From assembly GCA_001244265.2 (NCBI GenBank), contig CDLV01000012.1, positions 248,001-312,000 of the forward strand: a stretch of DNA of 64,000 nucleotides. The letters are read 5' to 3'. The position numbers were made by a program, and so were the translations under genes. Source of the stretch: Microbotryum violaceum (lineage: Eukaryota). The stretch's first letter is position 1. Each line of letters starts with the position of its first letter. A model generated the notes under the pieces. That model was not told the DNA's origin. It worked only from the letters and a program-made list of their open reading frames with translations, and did no database searches. Positions 26,201-59,648 of the stretch are shown here, piece by piece.

Positions 26201-26239
26201 GCTTTCGGCAAGGACGATGTTTCGACCGTCTACTTCTGA
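23212..26239 (+). CDS. BRE1: E3 ubiquitin ligase Bre1 (histone H2B)
   Basis: FRKQAIWREMREYRR, long coiled coil, KTKADNRYFQTMR (Bre1 domain), C-terminal C3HC4 RING CSTC...CHHLFCKDC...RQRKCPTC. Confidence 0.93.
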
Positions 26240-27433: not shown

Positions 27434-29067
27434 TCACAACTTCATCCCACCCGACGAAGCGCCGCCCAACCTCATCCCGATGCCCGGTGTGCCCAACTCA
27501 CTCAGTCTTCTTATCGTACCCGGAAAGCCCGGTCGCGTCCACATGGTCGTCGAGCCCCCAATACCCAATACACCATTCCCACCCGATTCCTCATCCGACC
27601 CCTCGGAATCACCACTACTCGCATTGCCGATCCCCACAGCGCCACCGACGGCCCCCATTGCCGCGCCGCTCATCCTCCCCGAAACGAGTCGATTCACATC
27701 CATCATGACGTGGTGCATTTGCATCCTCAGACCGTGGGTTAACGCTCGGAGAGAGGCGATCTCTTCGCCTGTTCGGACTGAGTCGTGTTGTATCGTTTGG
27801 GAGAGGCCGGCTTCGAGCGACGAGTGAGAGGACTGTAGGGAGCCTAGCTGGGATTGAAGCGAGGATAGCTGCGTCGAGAGTGTAGTCGAAGAGGTGGCCA
27901 AGCCGGGTGAACTTAAACGTGAACCGACAGAAACCGACAGAGGAAGGGCTTCGAGCAATGGTGTCGAGTCGAAGCGTTCGGTGGAAGAGGTTGCATCGAC
28001 TTTTGTCGGTTGTGGAACGCTTGATGGTTCAGGGGCGACCCAAAATTCGCCCATACCTCTCCTTACCCCTTCGAGGACTTCCCGCATCTCCCTCATGCCT
28101 TCTTCGAGCTTGCCAACTCGTTGCCGCAACCACCAGTTTTCCCCTTCGACGCGGTCGATGATGCCCTTTTGTTGATCGAGATAGGTCTTGATCGGTTCGT
28201 AGGGACAAGCGACGTCGAGGTGTTCGTCGGCCATCAGCGAGCGAGCGACCCGGCTTGAGCAGCCATGGGCAGCATGCGGACATAGTATTGGGATCATAGG
28301 ACAAGTTTCGAGGTGATGGGACGGTAGTGCTGATCGAAGGAGCATTGTCGAGCAATAATTGCAGTTGACCTCGGCCGAAGGACAGGTCAATCCGTGCGAC
28401 TGAGGACGAATTTTCATACGCCGACCGACGAGTTAGACCGACGAGCGTTCCAAATTCTGGGCAGGCGAAAGGCACTCACCGAGAGATGACTGGCGAGCAA
28501 ATCTACGCGACATAAATCACATACGACCCATATCTCCTGGCCGTTCTCGTCAACATTCGCCGAATCCTCTTCGACGTTGCTGACGGTGACCTTGGCCTTG
28601 CCCTTCCCCTTGGTATCCGAAACGGTGGCGATCTCGCGCTCGTATTGACACTGGTCCTTGAGATGAATGGACAACCAGCCCCTCTCACATTCGATATCGC
28701 ATCCTTTTTCCGCGTGAGGACACTTGACGCTCAATTCATCGACGAGTTGGTGGACGATGCGAGGCGCGTCGACCAACTCCTGCTGCAGCAATGCCGAGCG
28801 GTCGATCGGGCACGTCGACGACAGCAAAAGGGCGCGGCTGATGCAGTGATGACAGAAGATGTGTTGGCACATCGGTGACATGACCGGGTGGATGAAGGGG
28901 TTGCTGGTGGACGACATGAACGCGAGGGGTAAGGTAAGCAATGTGGAGAACTGGATGACCGGCCCGTGCCAGTCAGACGGAAGACGGGGTGACACTCACC
29001 GACATATGGCGCATTCGAGGGATGCGTTGACCTGGCCCACATAGTCGTATACGTTTTCGCGTTCCAT
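27434..29067 (-). CDS. RING (C3HC4) + TRAF-type zinc-finger protein, probable E3 ligase
   Basis: YDYVGQVNASLECAIC/RNPFIHPV...CQHIFCHHC...CPIDR, LVDELSVKCPH...GC...H...C, further TRAF fingers (CNYC...H...CP...CPHAAHGC) and a coiled coil. Start codon uncertain. Confidence 0.85.
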
Positions 29068-39680: not shown

Positions 39681-42022
39681 CAGACGCCCAACGATCCACC
39701 AGCAGCTTGGACGTCCACCAAACACCGCCTGCTGCCCGAGCTGCAGGCTCTGGCCCGGACTTTCGCTCGGTGCCGTCGTGGCGGGTCGGAGCAAGAGAGG
39801 GCTGACCACTCGCGCTACGGCGCGGCCCTGCGGTCCCGCCTCGACCCATCTCTGGCGGGTCCCTCTTCCATCTTCATCCGCCTGCGCAAAGTGCGAGCAT
39901 CCGACCTGATCCCTTCGCTCACGGTCAACGATGTTGTTCATTTCGACCCTGATTTGATGCTTGGAGCGGCCAGCGACTACTTCGAGCGGGTCTATGAGGA
40001 CCGCCCCATCGATGACGCGGCCCTGAAGGCGATCATCGACGGCCTCGCTTCAACTCGCCTCTCCCCGCGGACTCACTCAAGCTCGAGGAAGCGTACCCGT
40101 TGGAGGAGATGACAAAGGCTCAAGAGGCGTTCCTCTGCGCCGTTGGCCTCGGCCCCAAAGCCCGCCAATGGTACCGAGCGACCTACACCAACCAATCTGC
40201 CTCGATCTTCCTCAACGGTTGGCTCTCTGCCACTTTCGACATCCTGTCGGGCGTTCGGCAAGGTGATCCTTTGGCTCCGTCTCTCTTCGTCCTGGCGATC
40301 GAAGGTTTTGCCTGTCAGATTCGATTGAGAGTCAAGGGCATCGATATTGCGGGCCTCCAAAACGTTCGCGAACTCCTTTTTGCCGACGACGCTTGCTGCG
40401 CACTCCACAACCTCTCGGACCTCGACCACCTCAATCGGGCGATCGAGCTTTACGAACGGGCAAGTGCCAGCAAGCTCAGCAACCCCAAATCTTTTCTCTA
40501 CCCCCTTGGAGCTTTTCGGGATCGGCCGGTCGCTCCAGATCTCGGGACCTGGGGTCTCAGCGATTCGCAGTTTCGCTACCTTGGTATTCAGGTCGGGGTG
40601 GAGATCGCCGAGGATGCGGGCTGGGAAGATGTCAAGGCCTTGACCATCGCTCGGATACGCTCAGTTCCGATGTACGATCTCCCATATGCAGCCAATTGTT
40701 CGATCATCAACATCTACTGCTACACAAAGATCTCGTACTACAGCCGATTCCTTCCCGCCCCCAAGAGCGTTGTCAAGGAGATCGAGGAGGCCGCCATGCT
40801 CGCCATTCACGGTCGAGCTTCGGATGGTACTCAGCGACGTCCGAAGGTCTCCCGGTGGCGCCTCTGCACCCCTCTTGATCACGGCGGCTTCGGTTTGATT
40901 GATCTGCCTCGGCGTCTAGCAATCGATCACGCGAAGTGGGTCTTCCAGCTCCGGGCCCCGGACGGCTGCTTCACACGCCACCTCTTCGACATCCGCATCC
41001 GCCTCCAGGCACCAAACGAACCAACCCCTTTCACCTTGTCCAGACCGGCCCCCAACCAGCATCGTTGCCCTTGGATTTGGATCTGGTGGGCATACTTTTG
41101 CCATCCTCCCCCAAAGTGGGACCATGCGGTGAGAAAAAACGACAAAACTTCTTCCTGCTCGTTGGGTCCGATACTTCGAAGCCTGGGCGTTGGTGACCAC
41201 GCTCAATCCCCCGGAACTCTCCAAGAGCCAGAACCTCGAGCAATGGGCGACGCACATACTCTATTTCTCAGCGGGCCACGGAATACAACTCTCGGTAAAC
41301 CCGACGCTTTTTCGAGGGCCCGATGGCGAGGTGATGACCCCGTCTTCGTTTTTGAACGCGTTCAAACGCCACCAAGTCTTCATCCTCCCTCCTATCTTCC
41401 CCAAGGGACACCAGAAGGTATTCGATCTGCCTGAGCAACGCTGGAACGCTTGGTGGAAGGCTTTGCGCAAGGTTCGCCGGGTTCACTCGGACGCCGAGGA
41501 TACCGGCCACCTTCTCTCCCTGGGATCCCTCCATCCGGGAAGCCAAGTCGCCTCCCCAACCAGCCCACATCCCAACAATCGATCTACCTCCTGTGTGATG
41601 TGCCTCTCGGAAGTACCCGAGTGCCTGGTTCACCTCGCGGTCGGCTGCCCATTTGCCCGGCGCCTCTGGTCTGCTCTGTCCCCGACCCCCCACCCAGTCT
41701 TTGTGGACTTTGTATGCCCGGTCGTGTCTCGCTCGGAACGTCGACTTGTCGAACTACGAGTCCTCTTCTTTCACTCGATCTGGAAGCTCTGTCGCCGTCG
41801 TCGATTCTCGTCGGATCTTTTGGAACCGATCACCGAAACGGAGTTCGAGGGGCTTCGAGCCTCTATCCAGGAGTCCAAGGGTCGCCTAGTGTCTCTGTAA
41901 GACACCGAAGGGGGTTTTAGTGGGTATGGTTGATCCTGGTTCAGGGTCAATGAGTCCTACACTACTGGCTTCTGCCAGTGTGCGTAACAGCATTCCCTCC
42001 GACTTTTCCGAAGATTTCTAGG
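39681..42022 (+). mobile_element. 5'-truncated, internally deleted non-LTR retrotransposon (L1/Tx1-like)
   Basis: RT motifs SGVRQGDPLAPSLF, LFADD, YLGI, GGFGL; C-terminal CxxC...HLxxxC zinc knuckle ending at stop 41900; frameshifts; N-terminal RT motifs missing. 5' boundary approximate. Confidence 0.9.
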
Positions 42023-42100: not shown

Positions 42101-42300
42101 CTTTGGGCTCACATAAGGTCGGCTTTTGGGCCCACATCGGAGGCGACTCTGGTCCCACACCGAAGGCGACTCTGGTCCCACATCGGAGGCGACTTTGGGA
42201 TCACATCGGAGCGGACTTTGGGATCACATCGATGCGGACTTTGGGATCACATCCGAGGTCATTCTTGTACCACGTTCATGGGAACTTTGGTACCACATAG
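42101..42300 (+). repeat. 23-bp tandem array in the left TIR (~8.7 units, consensus CTTTGGGATCACATCGGAGGCGA)
   Basis: Units start in exact phase at 42101, 42124, 42147, 42170, 42193, 42216, 42239, 42262 and 42285. Confidence 0.92.
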
Positions 42301-45300
42301 TGTAGAGGCCTGTATCTCTTGCAATATGTGATGTATCACTCTGGGGAATGTAGTATGATGTATGTACAGGTCTATAGTACTTCTGGCGGGTGAGACGAGG
42401 CGGACAATGCAGTAGTTGCTACATCGGCGTTCTTCCGCGCTGTGCCGCTCCGCGCCCGTGTCAGCGGTTAAACCTTACGCCGATCGTCACGAGGCAGCAA
42501 GCGTAGCTTGCAATAAATATCATAGGGTGGAGCAAATGTTTTTTTATTGCTGACTAGAATACTTATGCGGTAATGGCATAATCACTACATGGGTGAGCTG
42601 TAGTGTTCCTTAGGCCTGCAATCGTTAGCACCCTTATTCGAGAAAATTCAAACATTCGGCGAAAGCCCTGGGGCCGCGCCAAAACTCGCAGGCACTCGTC
42701 GTTTGACGGGCTACACCGGCAAACTCACGAATGCCCCTGAAAGCAGCTCCTTTCCTCAGAGCTTCACACGCTCACTGGTCTTTCCCCCCACTCTCTCTTT
42801 CTTCTTACACATAAAGTCCTCACGTAAACACTCCTCCCTAGCTTAGTCGCGCGGAAATACTGTGCATCTCGAGCAAACGACGCCCAGTGAAGGGTTTACC
42901 TTCAAGGTAGATGGCGCCAGTCGCACTCATCATGTCGACAGGAGAAATGAGTCAACTGCTCCAAAACAAAGGGGGCCGACCACCCATCGCGTTGCAGGAA
43001 CAAAGCTCCCCAGAGGGATACGCATCGGAAGTTGACTCGGAAGTGGATGAGGATGAGGACAGTCTGCAGGTCTTGGCAGCTTTGGTCCCGGTTCCCTCAA
43101 AGTCCTCGATATCTAGCCCCTCCGCAGTCTCGGGGCTTTTAATCTCTCCAAAGAGCCGTTCGAGAGACTCCGACGAGGATTCGGCAGACGGGGGTTACTA
43201 CGGAGTCGACGACGACAATTCGGACGAGAAATCAATTGACAACATCTTCTCGGCACTACTCCTGGCTTGGAACGACATGAAGATCCTTGACCGGCACACG
43301 TACGAGCCCTCTCGACAGGACAAAGAGTTATCGAACACGACGCGCGAGGCAATTTTCTCAAACATGAGCCTCACGACTGCAGAGCACAACGAGCTCCGTC
43401 TCAGACCGCTTGTTCTCAATTGTCGCAAGCCGAGGTCCGAATGGGAATTCGTACGCAAACTTCCTGTCCTGGAGCTCCCAAAGTTCATGGCAAAAGAGGT
43501 ATGTTGAAGCTGCATGCTGCGCTGCGTTTTGTTTCGTCCTGTGAACGACCTAACTTTCATTGGTGCGATCTATTAACAGAAGCACGACTGGGCTCCACGC
43601 AAATATGAACGCTGTCTCGCTGTCGTCGAGCGACCTTACGGTGACCCGCCCTCGTCTACTCATCATCAACATCCGTCCGAGGTGGCAGTGGGGATCGAAT
43701 GGCGTCCGGAAGTACCTATCACCCTTCGAGAAGCTTGGAGTCAACCCGGCGAAGGTCGAGCTGTTGCGGAGGTTCTACGGATTACACATCGTTGCTCGGG
43801 GGCCTGTAAAAGAGTTCGGGTCAAGGATGGCAAACTTGGGTACAAGAAACGAGACAATGACAAGGACCCCGGGAAAACATGCTCTACTCAACTCAAGGTG
43901 ATCATCCCGGATAGGAAATCAAAGGAGCTTGGATTGGGTGGCTGATAAGACTCTCTGTTACCTTCTTCGTCCCTTGTGTAGATCCTCGTTCAGGCCGACG
44001 ATCTTTCATCGGCGCTGGTGTACACCCTCGGCAACCATGAAGGACGCCAACCACCGCCGAACGTCCGACGTCCAGCCCCTTTCATTCGTGCGTTGGCGCA
44101 TCAGGAAGTCTTTCGGCAGGCCAACACGCCCACGCTTGCATTTCAAAGTGAGTGTGTGCTCCAAGTTTGCACAAGAAGTTTCCACTTCTCAAGACTGACC
44201 ATCAGTTCCTTTCTCGATGATGAACTCGATCATTTCACAGATATGAACCAGCGGATGTCGGTCTGGGAGAAACAGAACGAGATCATTCTCCCGCAGTACA
44301 GGAAAGTCGGCGCAAAACAGCTACGCAATATGTTCAGGGCAAAAGGTCGACAGAACGCGCAGCATGGATCCGCCTTGTACTCGCTAGCTCGCACGGCTGA
44401 GCTGAGACCGTTCACCCTTCAAAATGCAACGGAGCCCGAGACACGCGGAGTGGCCTAGTGAGTGATCACGATCTAAGCTGCTTGCCGATTTGATGAGCTA
44501 ACAAGCGGCGGAGGTATTTACCCTTGTCAGCTTTCAACCTTTTAATGAGAAAACGGAGCAGCCGTTGATCTGCGTCCTTGCCTCCCTCCACTCCATCGAC
44601 GTGTTGATTTCCTTCGCCACAGTTGGGAACGATTCAGGCGATTGGTCGAGGTTTGTTGGACTTGACTCAAGCTGGCGATACCTGAACGAGAACCGCGCCC
44701 CCTCACCGCCCTCGTCGCGACTGGCTTGAAAGACAAACTTGCGCTAGGTGAGAGCCCGGGAAGCACTTGAAAGGAAGGTCCGGACGAGTACAAAGACTCA
44801 TTTCATCGCTTATGTATTGTCTTCTTCAGGTCCTATGTTTCTCTCCAGTGATGTGAAGGCAGATACTCTCGTCATCTACTTGGACACGGTAAAGAGGCTG
44901 GTCGAGGAGCGCGCCGCGATCCTTGTAAGGAGTGCGTTGTAAGATGGGTTGACCAGGGTGTGCTGCGCGTCACGACAGTTTTGAGAGGAGTCGCTCACGC
45001 CCTTCTGTACCGTCGACGATTTGTATGCGTACTTCAGAAGCTCGTGAGAATGGGCCCAATCTACCCGGCTCGTCCCCCAGGTTGCCAAATCTTCTCCAAA
45101 ATGCCGATTTCATCTTGGAAAATCAGTGGCAACCACCAAATTTCATGATCGACAAAGGTCGGACTGAGCTCAACGCCTTGACACTCTGTAAGCGCCGCTG
45201 CTTGCTAGGGCTACTATATGAGATGTGCAGACTGCTCTCACGATTTTGAATTCCTGATGATCGTCGTCTTCTGCATCTACGTTACTATAGGGAAAGAAAA

Positions 45301-47130
45301 GCACAACCTGAACTTTCACATACGCCTTTGCCAATTCCACGTGGTTCAGGCCATTATTCGGTGGTCGAGTGACAGGAATGACGGCGAAAGGGGCAACACC
45401 GTCAAGCCTTCTCGGATTGCTCGCAAGACGTTGATCAACATTTTGTACGAATTTCGATCCATCATCCAGCGCTTTCGTTTCATACGCACCGAGCATGAAA
45501 CAGATGCCGAGGCGACAGCTCGGCGCTCGGCTGAGTTCGAAGGGAAGAAGCGGGCGTTCTTTGAAAAATCGGACGCATGGATCGACGAAGAGTTCCGAAG
45601 TCGTCGCAAGCCAGCAGCAAACAAATCAGACGTCACCAAGAAGTCGGAACTGGGTTGCAACAGCCGAGAAGAAGAACAATTACAAGCAAAGAAGGATAAC
45701 TTTCGGGCGTATTTCAATGTCAACTGGTTCGTACAAGAGTGGATCGGTGAGTCTTACTTATTCCTTCTTTACGTGTTCTCTCACAGCTTTTTGGCTCACG
45801 CATTTCCACAATTCTGAAGAAACATACACAGATGATGGTTTACCCCTTGGCGTTTCACGGGAAACCATCAACACCAACAACGTGACTGAACGAGCCTTCA
45901 AGACCATCCAGCAAGAGCATCTCCACGGCCGAGCCAACAAGATGTATTGCGTAGCACCGGACTCAAGGAGCGAATCTCGACGGAAGAGCTGACAATTCTG
46001 CTTGCGCTCTGCACCTGCTAGGATCGACAATCTCGTTGTGGTCTTACCCGACAATGCTCTAGTTTATGACATTTGGAAGGACGTATCGAATGCAAAACCG
46101 GATCATGTTCTTCGAGATACTCTGGCAAATTCGATGGACATCTGGGAGCTTGGACAGTTCCGCCCTACCGAAAAGGAGGGCCAGTGGGTGCTTAGTTTAC
46201 GGTGAGGTTTTACGGGTACCAGTGCCTTGGCTACCAAGCCCTTACTGACGCGAGAATGCTTGTCGATGGCAAAGCAACGGCAGCAATTAGATGTTGGATA
46301 CGCGACAAGCTCAATCCTGATCAACTTCGTCCAAAAACTTCCAAACACACCATCTTTGAGAATGGAACCACTCAGTTTGGGAAGACCCGTGGACGCCCAC
46401 GTGAGACGAAATTTTCCAACAGCTTATCCTCGACCAAAGATCACGCGGCTGCCAAGCGAATGGCGGCCATTCCCGAGGTCATAGACATCGAAGAACTGAG
46501 CGACGACGAGAGGCCACCATGCCAGCTCTCGCCGTTACAAGAAGGACGTCTTCCACTCGACATCTACGATACAGTTCAGCCGGAGGAGCGCCGAAGCAAT
46601 GTTTCCGCCGTCAAGGACATTATCAAGCGCATTCCCAACGAGGTTCAGAAGGTTGATTGGGACGTATTCCTCGACATTCACGCCGGCGACCACGCACCAG
46701 GCCTGAACTTGAGCTCCTTGTGCGAAATGGCCAACGCCAATTTGTGGTTGAGGGCTTCGCACGTCGATGCTTTCAGCAGCGCTATCAATCGGTTCCAAGG
46801 CCAATTGCCTTTCAATGGTCGGTCAAAAGAGGTTCGTGACCTTGAACCAACATGCTACGCATTCTATCTCGAAGGAGGAAAGTGCGCCAAGGGAATTGGA
46901 GGCACTCGACCAACCGAGCGGCAGCAGGGGGTGAGTTCGGATGGGAGTTCGCGAGCATATCTTTCTATCATTATTGACAGGAGGCCTGCCTCTTTGTTTG
47001 CGCTGCCCCTTTACCAGATTATCCTTTCTCGAACACCAGTTCTACTCTTCCCAACTCATGTCACCAATCATTGGATACTTGTCGAGGTACGCCTTTCGGA
47101 TTGTACATTTCTGGTGTACGACTCTCTTTT

Positions 47131-47372
47131 TGTAGAAGTCGAACAGCGATGTGCTGAACGAGTTGGCGGCAGTGGCAAGCCAATGAGTTCGTAATCAAGT
47201 GGATTGCAATAAAGGAGTTCTTCACACACCTGAACGAGTTGGCGGCAGTGGCAAGCCAATGAGTTCGTAATCAAGTGGAGAAGAAGAAGGAAAGACGCGA
47301 TTGGACCGCGCGGCTAATACAAATAGAGACGCGCGCTAGGCAGATTTAAGGCAAGAGTAATCTACCTCAACA
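47131..47372 (-). repeat. 3' LTR of the copia element
   Basis: Identical by eye to 51526-51767; adjacent to the polypurine tract at 47373-47384. Confidence 0.95.
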
Positions 47373-50300
47373 CCCCCCTTGCTCTTGGCCTGAAATGCGG
47401 CGCAGACCGATGGCGTCACAATGACGCTGGAAGACTACTCGCGGCAGCGGCTTGGTGAAAATGTCGGCAACCATATCGTGGGTTGGGATGTAGGTGACCG
47501 AGATCTCTCCATTCCGAACATGCTCCCGAACGAAATGCTCCAACATGCGCAAATGTTTGGTGCGAGCGTGGAAGACCGGATTCTGGGTGAGCGCTATAGC
47601 TCCCTGGTTATCCCCGAGAAGACGTAAAGGGGACGACGTATCGAGACCGAGTTCGGTGAGGAGCGAGCGAAGGAAGACAGCCTCCTTGGCTGCATGCGAG
47701 AGGCCCAGGTACTCCGCTTCCGTGGATGAACAAGCTACGCGAGGTTGGAGACGAGATGACCATGAGATGGCCCCACCCGCCAGTTTGAACAAGTAACCCA
47801 TAGTGGACCTCGACGTCTGTATGTCCGATCCCCAGTCCGAGTCAGAGTACCCCTCGTACCCCAGCAGAGGCGCACTGGTGCGCGTGTAGTGTATGCCAAG
47901 ATCGAGTGATCCTTTGATGTAACGAAGGACGCGCTTGGCCGCCTCGAGGTGAGTGTCGCCAGCCTTGCCGACGAAACGTGACAGATATCCGACGGAGTGG
48001 GCTAGATCAGGGCGAGTGGCAACAACAGCGTACATGAGTGAGCCGATCATGGAACGGTAGATGGCATTGTCGGCGGAGTCTGTATCGGGTTCCGGCGAAA
48101 GCTGTAGGTTGGCTTCCATGGGTGACTTGCAGGGGTTGCAGTCGGACATGTTGAAGCGATCCAAGACGTCAAGGAGGTATTGACGCTGGAGAAGGGAGAT
48201 CCCGCCATCGTCGTGTCGTACGACCTGAACCCCGAGTACCCATTCGGCCGGGCCGAGGCGTTTGACTCCGTAGAGGGTGTCGAGTTGGTCAAGGACTCGA
48301 TCGATTTCCCCAAGATCCGGCCCAAAGAAGAGTAGATCGTCGACGTAGAGTGCAATGTAGTGATCACCCCAGCGTCCTCATGACGATAGATGCATTCGTC
48401 GCAGGCGAGGCGACGATAGCCGAGACTCGCGAGCGTGGCGTTGATCGTGTCGTTCCACACTCGACCTGCCTGCTTGAGACCGTAGATCGATCGATGAAGG
48501 CGGAGGCATTTGCCTTCGTAGCCTTCGATGCCAGTTGGAACCCGCATGTAGATCTCCTCCTCCAGCACACCGTGAAGATAGGCCTTGTCAACGTCGGCTT
48601 GAATGATGTGGTGGCCCTTCGAGGCCGAGTGCGCGATGAGCGTGCGGATGGAGGTGTACTTAGCCGTGGGTGAGAAGGTGTTGTTGAAGCTGTTTGGGCC
48701 TTGTGCGCAGCCCTGTGCAACAATGCGGTTCTTCAGTGAAACCATCTTCCCGGCTTTGTCGCGTTTGGTTCGAAAGACGTGACGACTTGGTAAGATCGTA
48801 GCTCCTTTGGGCACGGAGGATAGTCCGACGACGCTGAACACCTTGAGATCGTCTTTCATCGAGCGGAATTCCTCAATGGCTCCCGCTTTCCATGCCGCGG
48901 CGTGAGGATGGCGCATGGCCTCATTCCACGTGGTGGGATCACTGCTCGGGAGCGAGAACGGGTCCTCTGGTTCCGAGAGCGGTCGATTCGCCGTCGAGGT
49001 GTCAATGCCCGCCGCGTCGAGATCAGCAACAAGTTCGGTTACCTCCTTGCCTAGAGAGAATGCGAAGGCAGAAGGGGTCGAGCGCAAAGATGCTAGGGCG
49101 CCGTAACGAGCTGGGGGGTTGCGCGGGCGCGAACCCACGGGTGGCTGCCACGCGGGCCCCGGTGCGTCGAAACGTAAAGCAGCCGGAAGCTCCGCTTGGT
49201 CGGGGGGTGCCTGATTGGCATGCTGGTCAGGGAGTACAACGACTTCGTCATCGTCGTCGTCGCCTGCGACGGGCGCGTGAGCTGCTGTGATGCCCTCCCG
49301 CCTGGCTGGGAACTCGTCCTCGAAGAATGTGACGCTGCGCGATTTGAAAACTTGTCTGGTAGCGGGGTCAAACAGTCGGTATCCCTTGGATTCGAGATCG
49401 TAGCCGACGAATACGAGTGGAATGCCCCGCGGATCGAGTTTGCTGCGCGCTTCGGTGGTAGCTGCCTTCCACGCTCTGCAGCCGAATACGCGGAGATGGC
49501 CGGCTGACGGCTTCGATCCGTGCCAACGCGTGTGTGGTGTGACGCCTGAATTTGCCGAGTGTGGTGAGCGATTTTTGACGTAGACATATGTCGCCAATGC
49601 CTCGGCCCACAAAGCGTGAGATAGACCCGACTGGTGGAGCATTGATCGGACACCCTCGGTGATCGAGCGATTTGCGCGTTCGGCAACCCCGTTTTGCTGA
49701 GGGGCATCGGGAATCGAAAGCTGACGAGTGATGCCTTGTTCTTCCAGGAAGCTCGAGAACTCGTTCGACAAGAATTCACCACCGTTGTCGGAGCGGACTG
49801 CCAGGAGTTTTCTCGACGAGGAGCGCTCGACCTTTGCAAGCCACGACTTGAAGGCCGCAAAGGTATCGGACTTGTGCGACATCGGAATTGCCCAGAGATA
49901 TCGGGTGTAATCATCGACAATGACGAGGGCGTATTTTGCGCCGCCTAACGACACGGCGCCGTCGAACGCAAGAAGGTCCATGTGGACTCGATCAAGAGGC
50001 TGGGCTGAACGATTCGACGCGACGGTGGGGAAAGGGTGATGTGTGATCTTCCCAGCCTGGCATGTATCACATTTCAAGTCTGCGTTCAATGCTACCTCCA
50101 TGTTGACTCCCAGCACAGCCTCAGTTGAAATCAGCTGTCGTAGAGCGCGTGGGTGAAGGTGAGCGAAACGTCCGTGCATGATGGAGACGGGGACGGCCGC
50201 GAACGCACGTGGGGACGCACCCGGTTGTTCGATGAGAGTAGTGACGTCGACTAGGGAAGCATGCATGTGGTACAAGCCGTTCGTGATCTCCCCGGTGTGG

Positions 50301-51475
50301 CAAATCGACCCGTCGACTGAGACCGTTGCTTTGCCTCGGGAAAGGTTGATGTCGTAGCCCGCGGCGTTGGCGCGACTGGCGGAGAAGAGGCTGACCGGCG
50401 CGCTGGGGACAAACAACGCGTGGTGGAGTTGACCGATGCTGCCGTCGAAGGAGCGAACGACAGCGGAACCGACGCCTTCGATCGAATTGACCGCCTCGCC
50501 CGTGATGCCCTCGAGCGGAGCAGGCTTGCACTTGCGGAAGTTGGTGAAACAAGCGCGATCGTTGACGATGTGATGCGTCGCGCCGCTGTCGAGGATGAGG
50601 GAAGGTTTGGCCAATGTGGACATCGCTGCGGTGAGGTATCCGCGGACCGGGCCGTCTACCAACGTCGAGATGTCGGGAGCAGCGGCGAGTGATGCGGACG
50701 GCGCGGAGGAGGCCTTGGACTTCTTGTCCTTGACGGGGCATTTTCGATTCCAGTGAGGACCTCCACAGTGTCGGCACGGAGCTGACGGAGTCGATGAAGA
50801 TCTGTCCGTCGCGGTCAAGCTAGCTACCATCGCCACGGGCTTGTGTGCCGGCGTGGATTCAGCTTGAGTCTGAAGCGTTTGAAGCGCTTCAATCGGATCA
50901 GGGAGCTTGTCGAGGTCTTGACGGAGCGCTTGAGTATAGTACTCCTTGTAGAGGTCCTTGCCAAAGTGGATCAAGCGTATCGAGATGACCTGGTCAAAGG
51001 TAAGGTTGTATCCCGAAAGAGTGTTAAACAGCTCAATGGTGTTGGCTTGGTACTTCTCGAACGCGTCGACACCGGAGGGAGGCGGACCCGCATCGAGCAG
51101 GGCTTGGAGCTTGATGAAGATGTCGGTGACTGTGCCTGCTGCGACCGCTTTCTTGATCATCTTCAAGACGTCGGTGGGAGTGTGATCGAATCCATCTTTG
51201 ATCTGCTTCTTGATGTTGAGGGAGACCGAGCGCCTCAAGAGCGCGATCGCTTGGAAGTTGGCGTGCTCCAGGTCGGTGCGCGCGTTGGGTTTCTGAATGG
51301 GCGTCGCAAGCGTGCAGTTCCAATAGTCGCCCCCGAGAGCTCCACGGACGTCGTTGATCCATTGCGACCAGCCTCCCGCGTTGCGCAGGTGGCATGACGG
51401 GTCGATATCGCGGGGTTTGACATAGACGATAGAGGTTGTTCCCCCTGATACCACAGTGTCCGTATCACCGGGCAT
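47367..51475 (-). CDS. Copia gag-pol polyprotein with one frameshift at ~48367-48370
   Basis: CRHCGGPHWNRKC knuckle, LDSGAT protease, H-H-C-C plus VHMD/RSDNGGEF/QNGVAER integrase, RSIYGLKQAGRVW and YVDD RT (in the shifted frame), GYSDSDW...SSTEAEY...ADIFTK RNase H. Confidence 0.95.
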
Positions 51476-51513
51476 GATGACTTGATGACTCGAGTTGGCT
51501 GGGCCGCTACGTT

Positions 51514-51525
51514 GGGCTCGTAACC
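51514..51525 (-). other. Primer-binding site, half-tRNA-iMet type
   Basis: GGTTACGAGCCC directly follows the 5' LTR and resembles the GGTTATGAGCCC-type PBS of Ty5/Drosophila copia. Confidence 0.75.
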
Positions 51526-51767
51526 TGTAGAAGTCGAACAGCGATGTGCTGAACGAGTTGGCGGCAGTGGCAAGCCAATGAGTTCGTAATCAAGTGGATT
51601 GCAATAAAGGAGTTCTTCACACACCTGAACGAGTTGGCGGCAGTGGCAAGCCAATGAGTTCGTAATCAAGTGGAGAAGAAGAAGGAAAGACGCGATTGGA
51701 CCGCGCGGCTAATACAAATAGAGACGCGCGCTAGGCAGATTTAAGGCAAGAGTAATCTACCTCAACA
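51526..51767 (-). repeat. 5' LTR of the copia element
   Basis: Direct repeat of 47131-47372; followed on the minus strand by the PBS and gag ATG. Confidence 0.95.
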
Positions 51768-53596
51768 CTTTTTGGCAGGGAGAACATGCGCAAGGAGGCA
51801 AACGAAAGTCTCGATGTGAGTTCATCCCCATGACCATCACAAAGCACTTTCAAAGGCGCTCAAACTCTGCGCAGCTGCTGACGTCATTCGCCCTTTCTGC
51901 CTGCCAGTCAATCATCACTTTCTTGGAAACTCGTGCAGAGGGACCGATAGAGTGCATCACTGGAGGCATCGATCGACCGACGGTCCCGTACAGAAATTGG
52001 AAGCGATTGATTGTCAAAGCGGCGAAGGCCGGCGATCAGCCTCAACCGGATAGATATCCTCAACAGACTGATGGCAACACGTGTGGGGCGTTCGTGTGCC
52101 GAGCGATGGAAACCCTGGTATGCGCAGCAGTCGCCAAAATGGAACCCGATTGGAGCTGGGGCCCACAGGTTGAGCCGGGAAGATTTTATTCGGAGCTTCG
52201 AGACTATATGTTGGATGTCACCCTGCACTCTCGTCTACGATGCGACATGAGCTCGTCTTGGTTTTCGGGCTCGCCAGAGTCTCCAACCGTCTCGTGTGCT
52301 ACTCGTGATCCAGACAACACAATGGATAGCAGGAAGCCTCATGGCAATATACAGCCTGGAGATCACGTCGGTGAGTTCGAATAGGATATTGAAGCTCCTG
52401 CATGCTCTATTGTCCTAAGGAGCTCTGCTCTTCTCCTCCTCCTCATGTCCCTTGTTGTTTCGGAATGACTCACCCCTGATCTCATCACCCGGCCATTGTT
52501 TCGTGCGCAGGCTACAGCAGTGACGACGCGGAAGAAGTCTCACAACATCACAGTAAGTTCCAGGACAGAAAAAGCAACTTCTTGGCTTTGCTCGTGCCCT
52601 TGATTCCAGATTGTCACTCAATGATCCTTCCTCTCTTCGTGTCTGCGGCGCTCTAGTTTCCACCCCTGTGTCTACGAGATCCGTAACTTTCGAGGAGTCG
52701 AGACTTGCAAGGAATGTTTCGTCCTCTCCTGACACAGTCATTATCCAGCACCCACAACCTGGCGGTTTGTCACACGTGGGATCTGTACAAGGAAACAACA
52801 CGTCGACAGCACGAGCTCGTCTTGCATCGGACCAATCCGATTCGCCCCTAAACCGACCAACGCTCGCCTTTCCTTCATTTTCGCCAGTATTCGCCACGCG
52901 CGATATCGAACACCTACCAAAGAAATGCAAGTACTCTGCGGTTCCTCAAGAGAGTAGCCCTTCCGCTGTTGTTACTCCCAGCAAACGGCGTCATTCGGCA
53001 GCGGAAAGCGTGACCCCGAGCTCCAGTCGGCGGAAAGCTTGCTCGCAATGTCGAGACCGAAAGTTGAAGTGTGATCTAGGTCATCCATGCTCGAAGTAGG
53101 TACAGTCTAGTATTTCATCATATCAAGAAAGAGCTGACAACTGGTTTGTTCACTTTGAGCAGCTGCACTAAGAAAAGGAGAGGTAAAGCGAGCCAAGTTT
53201 TAACATGTGAATACGTTTAAATATCGTTCAACTGCAATGATCATACAAGCAAAAGTCCGCCGATGTCGAAGCGTGACTTAGTAGAATCTGTATCTTCGTT
53301 CGATCTCTATGAACTGTTCTTCTTGGATGAGAGAAGCGAGGGACCGGTGCCAATTCTGATCTAATCCGAGTCGGCGCAATCACGTTCGGGAGCGTCGGCC
53401 TTGGCGGCTCGGGCGCCGGACCGCTGACACCACGGGCGCGGAGAGGCCAAGCGGGGCAGAACATCGATGTAGTAGCTACTGCTTCGTCCGCCTCGTCTCA
53501 CCGGCCAGAAGCCAGAAGTATTATAGACCTATACATGCATCAAACTACTGTTCCCAGAGTGATACATCACACATTGCAAGAGATACAGGCGTCTAT

Positions 53597-53750
53597 ACTA
53601 TGTGGTACCAAAGTCCCCATGAACGTGGTACAAGAATGACCTCGGATGTGATCCGCAAGTCCGCACCGATGTGATCCCAAAGTCCGCTCCGATGTGATCC
53701 CAAAGTCGCCTCCGATGTGGGACCAGAGTTGCCATTTTCGGAACCAAAGT
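53597..53750 (-). repeat. 23-bp tandem array in the right TIR (~6 units plus one degenerate)
   Basis: Reverse complement of the left array, with unit variants in the same order. Confidence 0.9.
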
Positions 53751-54694
53751 GCCCTGCTATTCGCGGGATTAACCTAATTCCGATAAATAAAAAGCTGTCG
53801 ACCTGTCGGTTGCGCCTGCCGGCAGGCCGCAGCTGGTAGCAGCTGGCCACGCGGCCACGCCCTGTCACGCCTTGTTTCGCCTTGTGGCGCTCGCCTCACT
53901 CTGGTCCGATCGCCTCGTGCGTTGACTCGCCCGACGTTCTTACTTGGGCACAATAGCGCTGCTGGTCACGCGTTGGTTTTCGGTTACACGACTGCACGTG
54001 TCCCACTACGCTTCACTCTCGTACGGCGGTCGTCGTCTGACCGGAGTGCAGTCGTTCCGAGTCCGACGAGTCGTGTCGCGCGCGCCCACCGACTACCGAC
54101 TGCACGACCCCGTACCCGAACCGATCACCAATTGACGGGTCTCCAGCGATTGATTGAGCCCGGTGCACCGCCTTCGCGACCGTCGCTATCACCGGCCACA
54201 CTCTCGACCCCTTTTGGATCGTCAAAGGAAGGCTCGACGTTCAAAGTACAGTCCTCGAGTGGAGAGTGGCTTCTCGACACCTGCCTGGGCTGCATCGGGT
54301 CGGCTGGGCAGTGCGTACGCGGATTGGTCGTACGAGCATCGCCATCGCACTCCTCTTGGGCTTGCAGTCGGGGCCAAGTCCGAACTAGACGTGGACTGAG
54401 GTGGGTCCGGCTTCCCTCGGCGTGCTGCTCTCGGATGGTACGACGAGCACTTGCTGCGAGCGATGTGAGGAGCGCCACGGACCACCACTGCGCGCCATCG
54501 ACAATCGGAACATCGACTTCCGTTGGATTTCTTCCCGACGATAAGGAGCTAACAGTCCACTCTGATTCTCTTCTCGCAGTGCTCTGATCCAGCCAAGAGG
54601 TGCAGCAGGCTCGTAGGATTCCTTGTAACCCGAGAGCTTCCTCGACACGCCCACCTCGCAGCTCGCAGCTCGCAGCTCGCAGCCGTCAGCCAGC

Positions 54695-57600
54695 ATGGCC
54701 TACAACCAGGGCAGCGGCAACAACCAGTACTATGCACCACCACCATCACTACAGCAACAGCGTTCCATGTCCCCGGGGCAGCTGTCCCAACTGCGCGCCC
54801 CGATTCGCACCACCTCGAACCCGCCGTCACCGTTGACCGTTGGTGGGGGGTTCGCCTTTCCCGGACCGTCTGGGCCGTCGAACCTATCGGCGTCGACTCC
54901 AGCTTCGGGATCACCTACATTTGGGAGCGATGCTCACTCCGGCGGACCTAACTCGTCCCAATCGGGCCCGTATCAAGGCACATCGCGCTTTCACCAAGCC
55001 TTCGCTGCGTCGCGCCATGCCTCGTCGTCGTCCGTCTCGAGCGACAAGTCGTTCACCTTCGCCAACCCGAGCTTTGACGACAGTAGTTCGAGCCCCACGG
55101 GCGACCGCACTTTCGATATGTTGCATCGTGAACTCATCGGGGGAGGGCAGAACGGCTGGAATCCCGAGGGGCCAGACTCTAGGGGGCCGAGTCCAAGATT
55201 CAACGGGACGGCACCTGGAGGGGCATGGGGTGTAGCGGCACGGGGCGGGAGGGTGTTTGCCGAACCACTTGAAGCGTATAGTGGCATGTCGTCGGAAGCA
55301 ACGGTGCGAAGAGGAAGCGAGAACGCGCGCAGCAATGGCTTGTCTCAAGCTACGATGAACGGGGTCGAAGCCATGCCGAACGCCGACTTTGGCAGGCCCG
55401 CTTCGATGATATACGATGGCGGTGAGGGGGAGACCGGGTTCGAATTCTTGCTCTCACCGCCACAGACTGGGTTCCAGAGCGATCGTAGTGCCACGCTCCC
55501 GACGACTGCACCTCGGTCGACCAGCTTTGGCGCCAATCTTAATTCGCAAGGAGTAGGGGACGCGACGCCGAAAGCGAAGGACCGGTCGCGCGATCGCACC
55601 TTCCCGGCGCCCTTGTTGCTCAAGACGAATCGAAGTCGACCCTTTGCTCAACCCACGACAAACCCTGCATTCCCTGGTGTTGCTCAAGCCTCTCAGCCGA
55701 GGAGACCTTCGACTTCAGCAGGTTCCTATTCGGCGTCCAGCGTCCCCACCCTCACCACCCCACTGCCACTAAATACGCCTGGCGCCACCAGCTATGCCGC
55801 TGCGAGACCTGGTGTCGCAGCCGCTGATCCCCTACCGAGCAATGCACCATTGTCGAGGTCCGCGTTCCCTTATCAACGCCATCGCCCTTCGGCCTCGTCG
55901 ACTTCCTCCATCAGCCACACCCCGTCTCAACTGAGTATGACGCATTCACCGAACGGCTCGGGTGGATCTTCGTCGATGACGGGACCGCCGTCCTTCTCTT
56001 TCTCGAATCTGCCGTCCCAAACGCCGCCGCTTACATCCTCCACCTCCACGCCTTTACTACCCGCCCTGTCAACGCCAGCCACCACCACACCAACCTCCGA
56101 TCCTCCGATAGCACCGCAGGCGTTGTTGTCGCATGTGCAGTCTCTTCGATCGCCATCTTCGTTACCAAACATATCTGCCTCACCGCAGCACTCACTGATC
56201 CGATCGACGACAGGCACTCTAGGGACCGCCATGTCATCATCGACCCTGCCCCCGGAATTTGGTGCAACTCACCAGAGAACCACATCCACCGGGTCGACCG
56301 GCTCTGATGGTGCATTAGCGGTCACGCGTGAGCGGGTTTCGCAGTCACCGACCCGATCGATGGTCCGTCCCAGCACAGCGCCTACCCAAGGATCGCCTTC
56401 CTCCAAGTCGACCCCTGTCAAACTCGAAACGGTCGACCTCTCGCACAAGCGGATTGCCGAGATCCCGCAGGAGGTCATTGACGAGCTGCGAGGCGAGGTC
56501 GAGAAGCTGGCGTTGGGTTACAACTTGCTCAAGGATCTGCCAAGCCAATTTTCGACTTTGGGTAATCGGCTGAGGTATTTGAACGTGAGGGTTAACATGT
56601 TTACTGTGTTTCCTCAAGTCGTAAGTTGACAGAGTTTCACAAGGCAGCTTTGGGTTTTTTTGTTGCCGTGTTAACATATGTACTTCCTGCTACAGTTGTG
56701 CGAGATGCCCTCACTTGAGATTCTCGACATCAGTCGCAACAAGATCAAACGCCTGCCTCCGAGTCCCGGAACTCTTGTCAATCTCAAGGTGAGTGGTGTC
56801 TATGGCTATGGGTACGTGTCTGCCAGGCTCTAATTACGCCCGTATTCTTCGGCTTCAAGGTTTTCTCGATCGCCAAGAACCGCGTCAAGCGCCTGCCGAT
56901 CTGGTTCTCCGCCTTGACGCATCTCAAAGTGCTCAAGGTCGATCACAATCCGCTCGAGTGGCCGCCGAAAGACGTTGCCGCTTTCCCGTCCTCGAGTGCA
57001 ACAAGTACAGGCAACAATAGCAAGATCGAAGATGCCGAAGAGATGCAGCGCTGGCTACCGATGCTGCTCAAATGGATCAGGGACAATTCGAGCGCCGAAG
57101 CACTTCGAGTGTCGAAGAGCGCCATCGAGGAGAAGCGGAGGAGACCGTCAGTGATCACGAGCGAAGACGATGAGCGGTCCTTCGACACGTCCCTATCCGG
57201 GTCGAATGCCCAGAGCCTGACTCGTACGCCGGCCATGACGAGAACCGAGAGTGGACGACTATTGCTCGGTGGTTCGATAACGGGTGCCTCGGGCGCTAGA
57301 CCTCGCCTCGCATCCTCATCGACCTCGGCCGGGCTTGGCAACACGACCTCGACGGACGAGCGCCGCGTCTCCCAGGTGTTGGACGGCGACGATTCCAGCG
57401 TTCGACATGGGCGTAACGCTTCCCTTTCAACCACGCAGACCCTGCAGTCGAACAGCCGATCTGACCTGCGAGGCAAGAAGTCACTGCCTGATCTGCGCCA
57501 GAGCCATGCCGTCATCCTGGCCGATCGCAGAACGGCGACAACCGTGCCCAAGTCCGAAGCGCAAGCGACGGCCGCGGTCGTTGCGGCCGCAGGTGCCGGA

Positions 57601-59648
57601 GCCGCTCTGAGAAGGCTGAATATGGACCGAACTGCTCCTGGCACATCGCACCCTAGGCCGAATCGAGCCGCCCTTTTCAATCGGTCCCGCCTCGAGGACT
57701 CGAACCACAGTTTCGACTTTTCGGATAACGACGCAACACTCACTCGTTCTCGCCCCGGCCCCATATTCACTCACGATGCTACACGGTCAGGCGACAACGA
57801 CGCGACGCCTCTCGCATCACCGCTAGGGCACGACGTCGAGACCCCTCGGACACGAGCGATGCGAATAGGTCATACGGTTGACCCGCGAGGCGTCGATGGA
57901 CTGGATCGCAATAGTGGCGCCTACTTTCGTCGACTGTCAATGTTGCCCGCCTCGACGATCTCCAAAGCCGTCCCGGCGAATCTGCTCAAGTTTGCCGACG
58001 CTATTCGAGGTTTGCTCTTCGCTCTGTCACAGATTTATTCGGCTCTGCGACAATTCGTTGTTTTCGCCTCGCAGGATCGGTTCCCGGCCCCGATCGCGCG
58101 GCTGATGTCCGCTGCCGATGAGTCCATGACGAACCTGATTAACGCGCTTGATCGGTTCGACTCGCTCTCCCGTCGCGCAGCACCGAGCTCGGAAATTGTT
58201 CGCGACATCTTTACCAGCTGTCTTGACAACGTTGCGACTTTCCATGAGCTTGTGCAAACACTCGGACCGCATCTTGGGGCGCTGATTGGGACTGCGGATG
58301 TGCGCTATACACGCACGCTCCTGCTCATGCTCTATGGTTCGACGGGTGAGATTGCGACGTCGTGGGCGGCGATCGCACCTATGTTGAGTGGCATGGCCAG
58401 CATCGTTGACGACCCCTCACTCTCGACCCTCATGTTTTCGACCTCACATAAACCGAGTCATTCGACGAACTCGAGCGGCTCGACTCGTTTACTCGTTCCT
58501 GAATCGACGTCACTATCCCGAACACGGAGCAAGTCTCGCCGACATGCTGGCTCTTTTAGCGTCGAAGATGTCCAGCTCGGTGCCGAGCTCGCGCCGTCTC
58601 CGGTTCATGAAAGCCAATCCTTTCCAGCCGAGCTGTCTAACGGAATGTTGTCAGCTTCGTCGTCGACATCGACGCTTGGTAGTTCGACAGGAGGCAGCGC
58701 GACCAACGCAACAGTCCGAGCGCTCAATCGGAAGGGACTTCGGCCCGTGGGAGGTATCACCGTTCCCCCGGCGCAGGGATATCGGGAGATGGTCAACGAC
58801 GCCTTCAAGAACCCCATGACGCCGGGACAGACTCGCGAACTGCTCCTCGAAGGAAATGCACCCTCGTTACCGAAGATCGATACAAACCTCAGCATATCAA
58901 ATTCTGCGCTCTTCAGTACCAGTTCGCTTGCATCGGCTGGGTCAGGGTCATTGAGTGAAGTTTCGGCAGGGCTCAACAGCTCATCGTCGTCGATGAAGAC
59001 GTTAACGTCTGTGTCGCCTGGACGCGGAGGAGACTCTTTCTCTTTGCCCAGGAGCGAAGGTGGACGACCTGTGTCGACAGCGAACGCCGACGCCACGTTC
59101 GTCGACATGGCCGAATCGACGGTCACCATTGCTAGGTCCATTTACGGCATGCTGCTCGACGCGTTCGACGCCTCGGACCCGTCCTCAGCACCCGTCGACG
59201 ATGACGGTGCCCGGCTCATGCGAGCTCTCGGGCCTCGCAAAGTGCAAGAACTTGCCGATCTCTGTCGCATGGGAAATGAGGCTACGTCCGAGTTACGATC
59301 CGCCCTCGGTCGGGTGCGGTCCCGCGATTCCAGGGGTCCCCTCAAGTTCACGCCGGCCGACGCGAAGAAGCTGGGTGACGATGCTTATGCTTTTGTTCAG
59401 GTAAGACTCTGTCGGGCGTCTTCACAACATTGCACCTTGTGCTGACGTTGATTGCTCTTACTCAGACCGTGATCCGATTCGCCAAACTGGTCAAAGCTAT
59501 CTCGCTCGAGCACGGCTTCGCGCCCCGAATCCGCGAGGGCGTCGGACAGCTTACGATTGCGACGCGCGAGTTCGCAAAGACTCTGAGCAACTCATCGTTC
59601 AACTTGAGGGAGACGAGGGGACAAAAGCCGATCGGGAGCAAGAACTGA
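54695..59648 (+). CDS. SOG2: RAM-network leucine-rich-repeat protein Sog2
   Basis: Long S/P-rich N-terminus, LRRs (TVDLSHKRI, KLALGYNLL, LRYLNVRVN, LEILDISRNKI, LKVLKVDHNPLEWPP), then SOG2-domain motifs YFRRLSMLP and ADVRYTRTLLLMLYGS. Confidence 0.9.

Follow-up and report, generated by a model that had tools for sequence, protein, structure and literature searches.

Can a Mutator-like transposase, a Ulp1-type SUMO protease and a GAL4-type zinc cluster be parts of one and the same transposon protein? This question is raised by a locus in Microbotryum violaceum, an anther-smut-type fungus, that lies in a stretch of 64,000 nucleotides (NCBI GenBank assembly GCA_001244265.2, contig CDLV01000012.1, positions 248,001 to 312,000 of the forward strand); we refer to this whole stretch as the window and count all positions from its first letter. 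A preliminary description of the window, made from the letters alone, had attributed the three parts to a single gene at 42911-53220. Our analysis indicates, with a probability of about 75%, that the locus is a dead copy of a Microbotryomycetes family of Mutator-like elements (MULEs) whose protein carries a C48 (Ulp1-type) protease and, at its C-terminus, a GAL4-type zinc cluster. Pfam matches to C48 and Zn_clus, a profile match to SENP1 and the MULE domain of relatives show that this three-part architecture is real, but the copy present in the window cannot work. The protein of the family starts with an acidic region, which precedes a Cys/His finger-like segment, and continues with the DDE core of the MULEs, a SWIM finger and a further acidic stretch; these are followed by an AT-hook, the C48 protease, a linker of about 180 residues and the terminal zinc cluster.

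Reconstruction of the gene and its lesions

The gene was rebuilt from coordinates of the window and compared with P0001, a protein of 1648 aa from M. silenes-dioicae that carries PF02902 (C48) and PF00172 (Zn_clus) in a single chain.

42911..53220, plus strand: sole gene of the element, with 16 exons and a copia insertion, broken; from the rebuilt model and a tblastn search with P0001
44698..44702, plus strand: run of five C, one base short of the frame of the relatives; frameshift immediately past the first catalytic D
46202..46254, plus strand: 53-nt GT..AG interval at an internal deletion junction, with no counterpart of P0001 residues 844-1011
46388..46402, plus strand: AT-hook core RGRPR; the same motif type is present in P0008, P0016 and P0026
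47131..51767, minus strand: copia-type long terminal repeat (LTR) retrotransposon inside the C48 region

We built the gene model by excising 47131-51772, i.e., the copia element together with one copy of its target site, and by placing one unknown base into 44698-44702. In this way, the continuous frame that had been claimed to run from ATG 42911 to TAA 53220 was recovered: it comprises 1475 codons, a lone stop (TAA 53218-53220) and 14 introns of 52-140 nt, all of which are bordered by GT..AG. When the extra base was omitted, the frame failed at codon 487 and 27 stops followed. We do not regard the agreement of this model with P0001 as a product of chance, because the two align at 93.7% identity over residues 1-843 and at 97.5% over residues 1012-1648. 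All of the motifs that had been listed for the protein, D-D-CxxH-E, RGRPR, those of C48 and the terminal C-x2-C-x6-C-x5-C-x2-C-x13-C, could be located in the window.

Residues 844-1011 of P0001 (168 residues, encompassing the CxC...CxH motif of the SWIM finger and the acidic stretch) are deleted from the window copy, and the interval 46202-46254, previously taken for an ordinary intron, sits at the junction of this deletion. The SWIM finger, which follows the core and whose CxC...CxH motif is present in P0001-P0003, is accordingly absent here. Since the frame is shifted within the core, the copia element is lodged inside the protease and the SWIM finger is lost, the copy in the window cannot work; it is dead and without function. 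Many of the annotated genes of this MULE family are likely to be dead copies as well.

Assignment to the Mutator-like elements

43793..44044, plus strand: Cys/His-bearing N-terminal region (C-x3-C ... C ... H), a candidate DNA-binding finger whose fold is not established
44658..45899, plus strand: MULE-type DDE core, with the first D at 44658-44681, the second D at 45142-45156, CxxH at 45329-45340 and E at 45876-45899

The core of P0001 (residues 380-870) matches proteins of Exidia glandulosa (P0008; E 9e-31) and Tilletia indica (P0009; E 3e-25), in both of which Pfam recognizes the MULE domain (PF10551), SWIM (weakly) and PF02902. A full HMMER search with P0006, a protein of a second Microbotryum subfamily, yielded 182 representatives at E values up to 0.001, and 50 relatives were picked by hand from the mid-sized and long matches among 156 proteins for alignment and Pfam scans. 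In the alignment, the second-D motif D-K, C-x-F-H and E are nearly invariant; Pfam detected MULE (PF10551) in 23, C48 (PF02902) in 12, SWIM (PF04434) in six and Zn_clus in none of the 50 proteins. The relatives that could be named all belong to the Basidiomycota (Mycena, Roridomyces, Ramaria, Dendrothele, Tilletia, Exidia and Phenoliferia). A language-model search for look-alikes returned MULE/SWIM clusters with scores of 0.83-0.93, which we take as a lead only, and Pfam scans of the single exons of the window returned nothing for the DDE core. The element is a MULE by virtue of its relatives and of the conserved catalytic motifs, and not by a direct Pfam match.

The N-terminal region contains one invariant Cys residue and shows C-x3-C ... 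C ... H in the consensus of the alignment (A3). It had been labeled a WRKY/GCM1-like finger; Pfam gave this label no support, as it found no DNA-binding family at this position in any of the three subfamily proteins scanned or in any of the 50 relatives.

42104..42468, no strand assigned: left terminal inverted repeat, outer limit approximate, including an array of direct 23-bp units at 42104-42310
53425..53770, no strand assigned: right terminal inverted repeat, outer limit approximate, with 23-bp units at 53610-53748

The gene is enclosed by long terminal inverted repeats, a feature of MULE/MuDR elements. They consist of an inverted pair of 223 nt (I1; 42165-42387 with 53511-53733) that is 93% complementary and of its inward continuation (I5), a pair of 81 nt with 85% complementarity. 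The outer portions of both arms are tandem arrays of a 23-bp unit (repeat family D2); allowing up to three mismatches, the 23-nt unit occurs four times in the window, always within the two arms, and not once in 100 shuffles. The left arm possesses about three more of these units than the right arm. The outermost parts of the arms, 42104-42172 and 53734-53770, are only about 60% alike; the true termini of the MULE may have eroded, or one end may have been rearranged. We estimate the intact element at about 7 to 7.5 kb, with inverted ends of about 300 bp made of 23-bp units and one multi-intron gene.

The subfamily of the window comprises four proteins of M. silenes-dioicae and one of M. saponariae, encoded on separate contigs, and further fragments exist; many of these copies bear lesions. 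Because it has inverted ends, several copies and lesions that arose independently, the locus is a transposon rather than a single-copy host gene.

The C48 protease

46700..47130, plus strand: first part of C48, with the catalytic His at 47063-47074 and the catalytic Asp at 47114-47125; PF02902, E 3.2e-4, profile positions 83-116
51773..52370, plus strand: second part of C48, with Gln...Cys at 52058-52087; PF02902 profile positions 134-189; contains the intron 51816-51907

PF02902 is matched by P0001 at an E value of 2.8e-07. A profile made from 13 members of the family matches the catalytic domains of SENP1 (E 9.8e-20) and SENP2 (about 1e-19) and that of yeast Ulp1 (1.3e-10), and the HW, YDS and QQ...CG motifs of the family fall on the catalytic residues of SENP1 (His, Asp, Gln and Cys). 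The window retains the complete His-Asp-Gln-Cys set, split by the copia element between the Asp (47114-47125) and the Gln...Cys segment (52058-52087). In P0159 of M. lychnidis-dioicae, a Gln residue replaces the catalytic His of the protease.

The terminal zinc cluster and its splicing to the protease

52511..52552, plus strand: 42-nt mini-exon between the introns 52371-52510 and 52553-52656; contigs of run X2 join across both
52657..53095, plus strand: Ser/Thr/Pro-rich linker exon ending in the first four Cys residues of the zinc cluster; PF00172 with 21.7 bits against a cut-off of 21, profile positions 1-22
53096..53162, plus strand: 67-nt intron (GTAGGT...GAGCAG) splitting the cluster between Cys4 and Cys5; contig of run X7
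53040..53208, plus strand: Zn2Cys6-type cluster C-x2-C-x6-C-x5-C-x2-C-x13-C; TAA 53218-53220 stands three codons past Cys6

Zn2Cys6 clusters usually follow the pattern C-x2-C-x6-C-x5-12-C-x2-C-x6-8-C. In P0001, the cluster matches Zn_clus (PF00172) with an E value of 4.5e-06 and 27.1 bits (cut-off 21), and the first five Cys residues fit the GAL4-type family, as do the basic residues that separate Cys2 from Cys3 and the Pro residue preceding Cys4. When solved structures were searched with P0001, the zinc cluster of Cep3 (7k7g_M) was the best match, a weak one (E 0.13). Both P0001 and P0004 bear the cluster at the end of a transposase-protease chain. It is separated from the end of C48 by 183 residues, 37% of which are Ser, Thr or Pro.

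The introns that link the protease to the cluster, 52371-52510 (140 nt), 52553-52656 (104 nt) and 53096-53162 (67 nt), are exactly those of the preliminary description and keep the phase. Contigs of four public runs, which were only guessed to be RNA, were mapped to 51773-53420. Run X1 covers this interval without joints and looks like DNA. The contigs of run X2 are 90-99% alike to the window; one of them skips 51816-51907 with GT..AG ends, another skips 104 nt (from 52551 to 52656), and two join the protease exon to the mini-exon, one from 52362 to 52506 with three letters in between and the other from 52368 to 52492 with one letter in between. The first of these two junctions may be the canonical one, seen in a copy that has diverged, its letters giving D-Y-A-G-Y-S as in P0005 of M. 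saponariae; the second may reflect the use of an in-frame acceptor located 18 nt further upstream. Introns 1 and 2 have no depth in X2. In run X7, 53095 is connected to 53163 by a contig of 192 nt, which thus lacks precisely the 67 nt, with GT..AG ends, that had been predicted as an intron. The model P0159 of M. lychnidis-dioicae independently makes use of both junctions that follow the protease, as does P0001. These data support splicing from the protease to the mini-exon, on to the linker and into the zinc cluster, and the combined message appears to be transcribed. The exons of the cluster were also considered as a neighboring host gene; this candidate was rejected, as they are situated on the inner side of the right inverted repeat and splicing connects them to the exon of the protease.

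The same data bear on the possibility that gene prediction or the exon model produced the fusion artificially, with the parts belonging to separate genes, or that we are dealing with a domesticated family of host genes and not with a transposon. We hold this to be very improbable. It is true that the automatic database models disagree with each other at several introns (P0001 retains the intron 45188-45290 and P0003 that at 44148-44240), that P0158 is annotated as a separate protein of 250 aa made up of linker and cluster only, and that the nature of the runs is a guess. Yet, the contigs of two runs skip the predicted GT..AG introns and leave introns 1 and 2 without depth while X1 runs through, the frame is open across all junctions, and the inverted ends, the multiple copies and the independent lesions are at odds with a single-copy host gene.

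Relatives and age of the zinc-cluster tail

The proteins nearest overall are those of M. silenes-dioicae and M. lychnidis-dioicae, with identities of 94-98%. A frame of 332 residues (46196-47194), compared with longer proteins, gave five matches, four from M. silenes-dioicae (96-97% identity) and one from M. saponariae (78%). Among the 156 proteins, the five-Cys pattern is found in P0001 and P0004 only. The half-pattern C-x2-C-x6-C is present in eight of the 156: four members of the window subfamily, P0135, where it stands at an unrelated internal site, and three proteins of the related yeast genus Phenoliferia. In the latter (P0016, P0024 and P0026, out of seven Phenoliferia proteins), a half-cluster A-C-x2-C-R-x2-K-x2-C-x4-P-C forms the last residues of models that are marked as partial. 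When 166 proteins were searched with the tail of P0001, these three were the next best matches after its own subfamily (E 4e-4, 0.013 and 0.042).

We computed a quick maximum-likelihood tree from 82 core regions, keeping those rows that span at least 270 of the 360 positions of the P0006 core. The five Microbotryum and the seven Phenoliferia rows form one clade of 12 (97 in the Shimodaira-Hasegawa-like approximate likelihood ratio test, SH-aLRT), and tail-bearers are located on both sides of its first split. The simplest reading of this distribution is that the zinc cluster was gained once, before the Microbotryum and Phenoliferia elements diverged, and was later lost, or cut off in truncated models; the cluster may therefore be old. 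The preliminary description had thought of a DNA-binding domain captured from the host. If anything, such a capture would be an old acquisition shared with Phenoliferia elements, and no host donor was identified.

Four short models of the second Microbotryum subfamily (P0025, P0054, P0019 and P0028) end with C-x2-C-K-K-R ... C, three further residues and the stop. These ends resemble the second half of a cluster without a recognizable first half and may be a degenerate remnant of the tail. A metagenome scan with the clade alignment gave 267 pattern matches that collapsed to 11 loci, none of which showed the cluster pattern on the coding strand. All 11 loci are distant MULEs, with identities of 22-32% to P0016 and P0001 in segments of 90 residues or more, and they are silent on the Phenoliferia tails.

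Observations that weigh against the reading, and the zinc cluster as a possible passenger

Several observations weigh against our reading of the locus as a copy of a MULE family equipped with a zinc cluster. MULEs characteristically have a target-site duplication of about 9 bp, but no credible one was found here when 8-11-bp flanking repeats were scanned over the plausible ends; the sole match was spurious and falls within the 23-bp subrepeats. The boundaries of the outer ends are not sharp, as judged by the alignment of the arms and by the register of the units. With 4.3-6.6 CGG/CCG per 100 nt, the ends hardly exceed the density of the window (3.8) and are so close to the background that an enrichment of CGG in the inverted ends is not convincing. 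Pfam did not recognize MULE in any of the three proteins of the window subfamily, nor in P0006 and P0007 of the second one. In the profile searches that had been proposed as a check, PF02902 and PF00172 matched, and MULE was reached via the relatives. As to splicing, it is only a guess that the runs are RNA, the span from the protease to the stop codon is not covered by any one contig, and one X2 contig of low depth (4.3) lies inside the intron 53096-53162.

Other points concern the cluster itself. The alignment of PF00172 to P0001 covers profile positions 1-27 of 39 only, and the spacing of 13 between Cys5 and Cys6 goes beyond the usual 6-8. The first five Cys residues and the Pfam score agree with the Zn2Cys6 class, whereas the placing of the sixth Cys is atypical. 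In GAL4-type factors, the Zn2Cys6 cluster is N-terminal and precedes a linker and a coiled coil for dimerization. These factors differ in all of these respects, and in not being part of a transposase, from the protein studied here, in which the cluster forms the last 37 residues, ends three residues past Cys6 and lacks the usual linker and dimerising coil. A single-sequence fold of P0158 (linker and cluster) is uninformative; its mean predicted local distance difference test score is 42.7, with values of about 70 for the last 30 residues, which are drawn as strands. In one M. saponariae copy (P0005), an Arg residue stands at Cys4. The cluster is absent from the second Microbotryum subfamily (P0006 and P0007) and from four of the seven Phenoliferia proteins, although losses or truncated models may account for this. 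The Phenoliferia half-clusters are individually weak (Zn_clus positions 1-22 with E values of 0.026 and 0.027, and no match for P0026), and their tails are known from protein models.

The unusual spacing and incomplete profile match, the C-terminal position without a dimerising region and the loss of Cys4 in one copy, together with the absence of the cluster from all 50 wider relatives and from 148 of the 156 pattern-searched proteins, would suit a different explanation. The zinc-cluster exons could be a passenger, a fragment of a host gene that the element acquired in the manner of a Pack-MULE and that happens to be spliced onto the transposase message without a role in transposition. We consider this unlikely, since three paralogues of Phenoliferia, with linkers that cannot be aligned, have half-clusters at the corresponding end of the protein, and these paralogues fall into a clade in which the separating path is about 1.9 changes per column long. 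Moreover, P0026 runs on with K-Y-V after P-C-M, which, as far as can be told from the protein, would fit a read-through of an intron at the same place.

Predicted activities of the element

If it behaved as is established for MULEs, the element would move in the cut-and-paste mode, its inverted ends being the substrate of the DDE core. Going by its family, the protease would take SUMO or a SUMO-like modifier off some partner or off the transposase. The zinc cluster would serve as a second, sequence-specific DNA-binding module and would recognize CGG-type triplets, perhaps in the element's own 23-bp end units or in target DNA; candidate sites are the one or two CGG triplets that each of the well-kept 23-bp units contains at fixed positions. 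Because the cluster comes after a linker of about 180 residues without predicted structure (the low-confidence model of P0158 shows no helix or strand outside the cluster), the arrangement suggests that the cluster is a tethered auxiliary DNA-binding module.

The protein might also have been a DNA-tethered deSUMOylase that shielded the element from silencing, with the cluster bound to the element's own 23-bp repeats and the protease de-SUMOylating silencing factors. Such a role, which is compatible with an ordinary MULE, is distinctly unlikely in our estimation. The CGG triplets at fixed positions of the well-kept units and the complete catalytic set of the protease favor it, and a precedent of principle is at hand in plant Vandal MuDR elements, which are described as encoding a sequence-specific regulator of their own silencing (PMC12730594). 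The CGG density of the ends near that of the window speaks against it, however, as does the fact that C48 is common in MULEs devoid of a zinc cluster (12 of the 50 relatives carry C48, none Zn_clus). We see the same slim chance that the fusion of the three activities amounts to a self-addressed anti-silencing enzyme, in which the cluster would park the protease on the CGG-bearing end repeats and SUMO would be stripped from silencing factors. Compared with VANC of the plant VANDAL elements, an enzyme of this kind would follow an analogous logic with different parts.

Neighboring elements and host genes

The window has a G+C content of about 55% and is fungal-looking. The copia element inside the protease probably inserted recently, because its 243-nt LTRs are 100% identical and it is flanked by the target duplication CTTTT (47126-47130 and 51768-51772). 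Its open reading frame 48047-51589 matches RVT_2, rve, gag_pre-integrs and other families. The copia polyprotein is encoded in two overlapping frames, 48047-51589 and 47367-48377, and therefore involves a frameshift in pol. Adjoining the left inverted repeat, 40016-41900 (plus strand) looks like a fragment of a non-LTR retrotransposon; it contains a frame for a reverse transcriptase (PF00078, E 3e-08) and, after it, a frame rich in Cys. Since this fragment abuts the repeat, the MULE is part of a small cluster of mobile elements with host genes on either side.

6353-9462, minus strand: host gene for a CHD1-like chromodomain SNF2 helicase
24212-26239, plus strand: host gene for a BRE1-type RING ligase
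27434-28432, minus strand: host gene for a TRAF-type zinc-finger protein
56719-59445, plus strand: host gene for a SOG2 RAM-pathway protein

Discussion

In Arabidopsis, MULEs that carry Ulp1 are of the KAONASHI type. Mutator transposases with Ulp1 are on record from plants (Arabidopsis, melon, rice and maize), hydra and lancelet (PMC2836005), and C48 is an accessory domain of fungal DNA transposons (PMC5751038). These plant and animal proteins resemble that of the window in combining a Mutator-type transposase with a Ulp1 protease domain; the available portions of their descriptions mention no Zn2Cys6 cluster, whereas the family studied here is fungal and adds a long linker and a GAL4-type cluster after the protease. 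The basidiomycete MULE-C48 proteins (P0008 of Exidia, P0009 of Tilletia, and those of Mycena, Roridomyces and Ramaria) share a homologous core and the same domain order; unlike the window family, they end with the protease, and Zn_clus was detected in none of the 50 scanned relatives. Ginger1 transposases are described with a C-terminal Ulp1 and in one case with Ulp1 plus a PHD finger (PMC2836005). They are alike in the sequence of a DDE transposase, Ulp1 and a small zinc-binding reader module, and differ in belonging to an integrase-like superfamily, in their animal hosts and in carrying a PHD finger instead of a DNA-binding zinc cluster.

A survey of MULE architectures lists SWIM, Zn-knuckle, AT-hook and OTU additions (PMC1702500). 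Literature searches aimed at such a fusion gave no publication on a Zn2Cys6 cluster on a transposase. Those sections of the Microbotryum papers on transposable elements that were available to us pool all elements with terminal inverted repeats and give no architecture, and their supplementary libraries may hold a consensus of the family. Ulp1/C48 on MULEs is thus known, and we could not find the added terminal Zn2Cys6 cluster described.

Transposases often gain extra DNA-binding or chromatin modules. In the family represented by the dead copy of the window, a protease is paired with the DNA-binding fold of the largest transcription-factor family of fungi, and this pairing has seemingly been kept across two genera. 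It offers a handle on the role of Ulp1 in transposons, namely by way of asking to which DNA the tail attaches and if this is also the site of action of the protease, and it bears on the traffic between transposons and transcription factors in fungi. As members of the family are annotated as ordinary hypothetical or zinc-cluster proteins, they inflate the counts of transcription factors.

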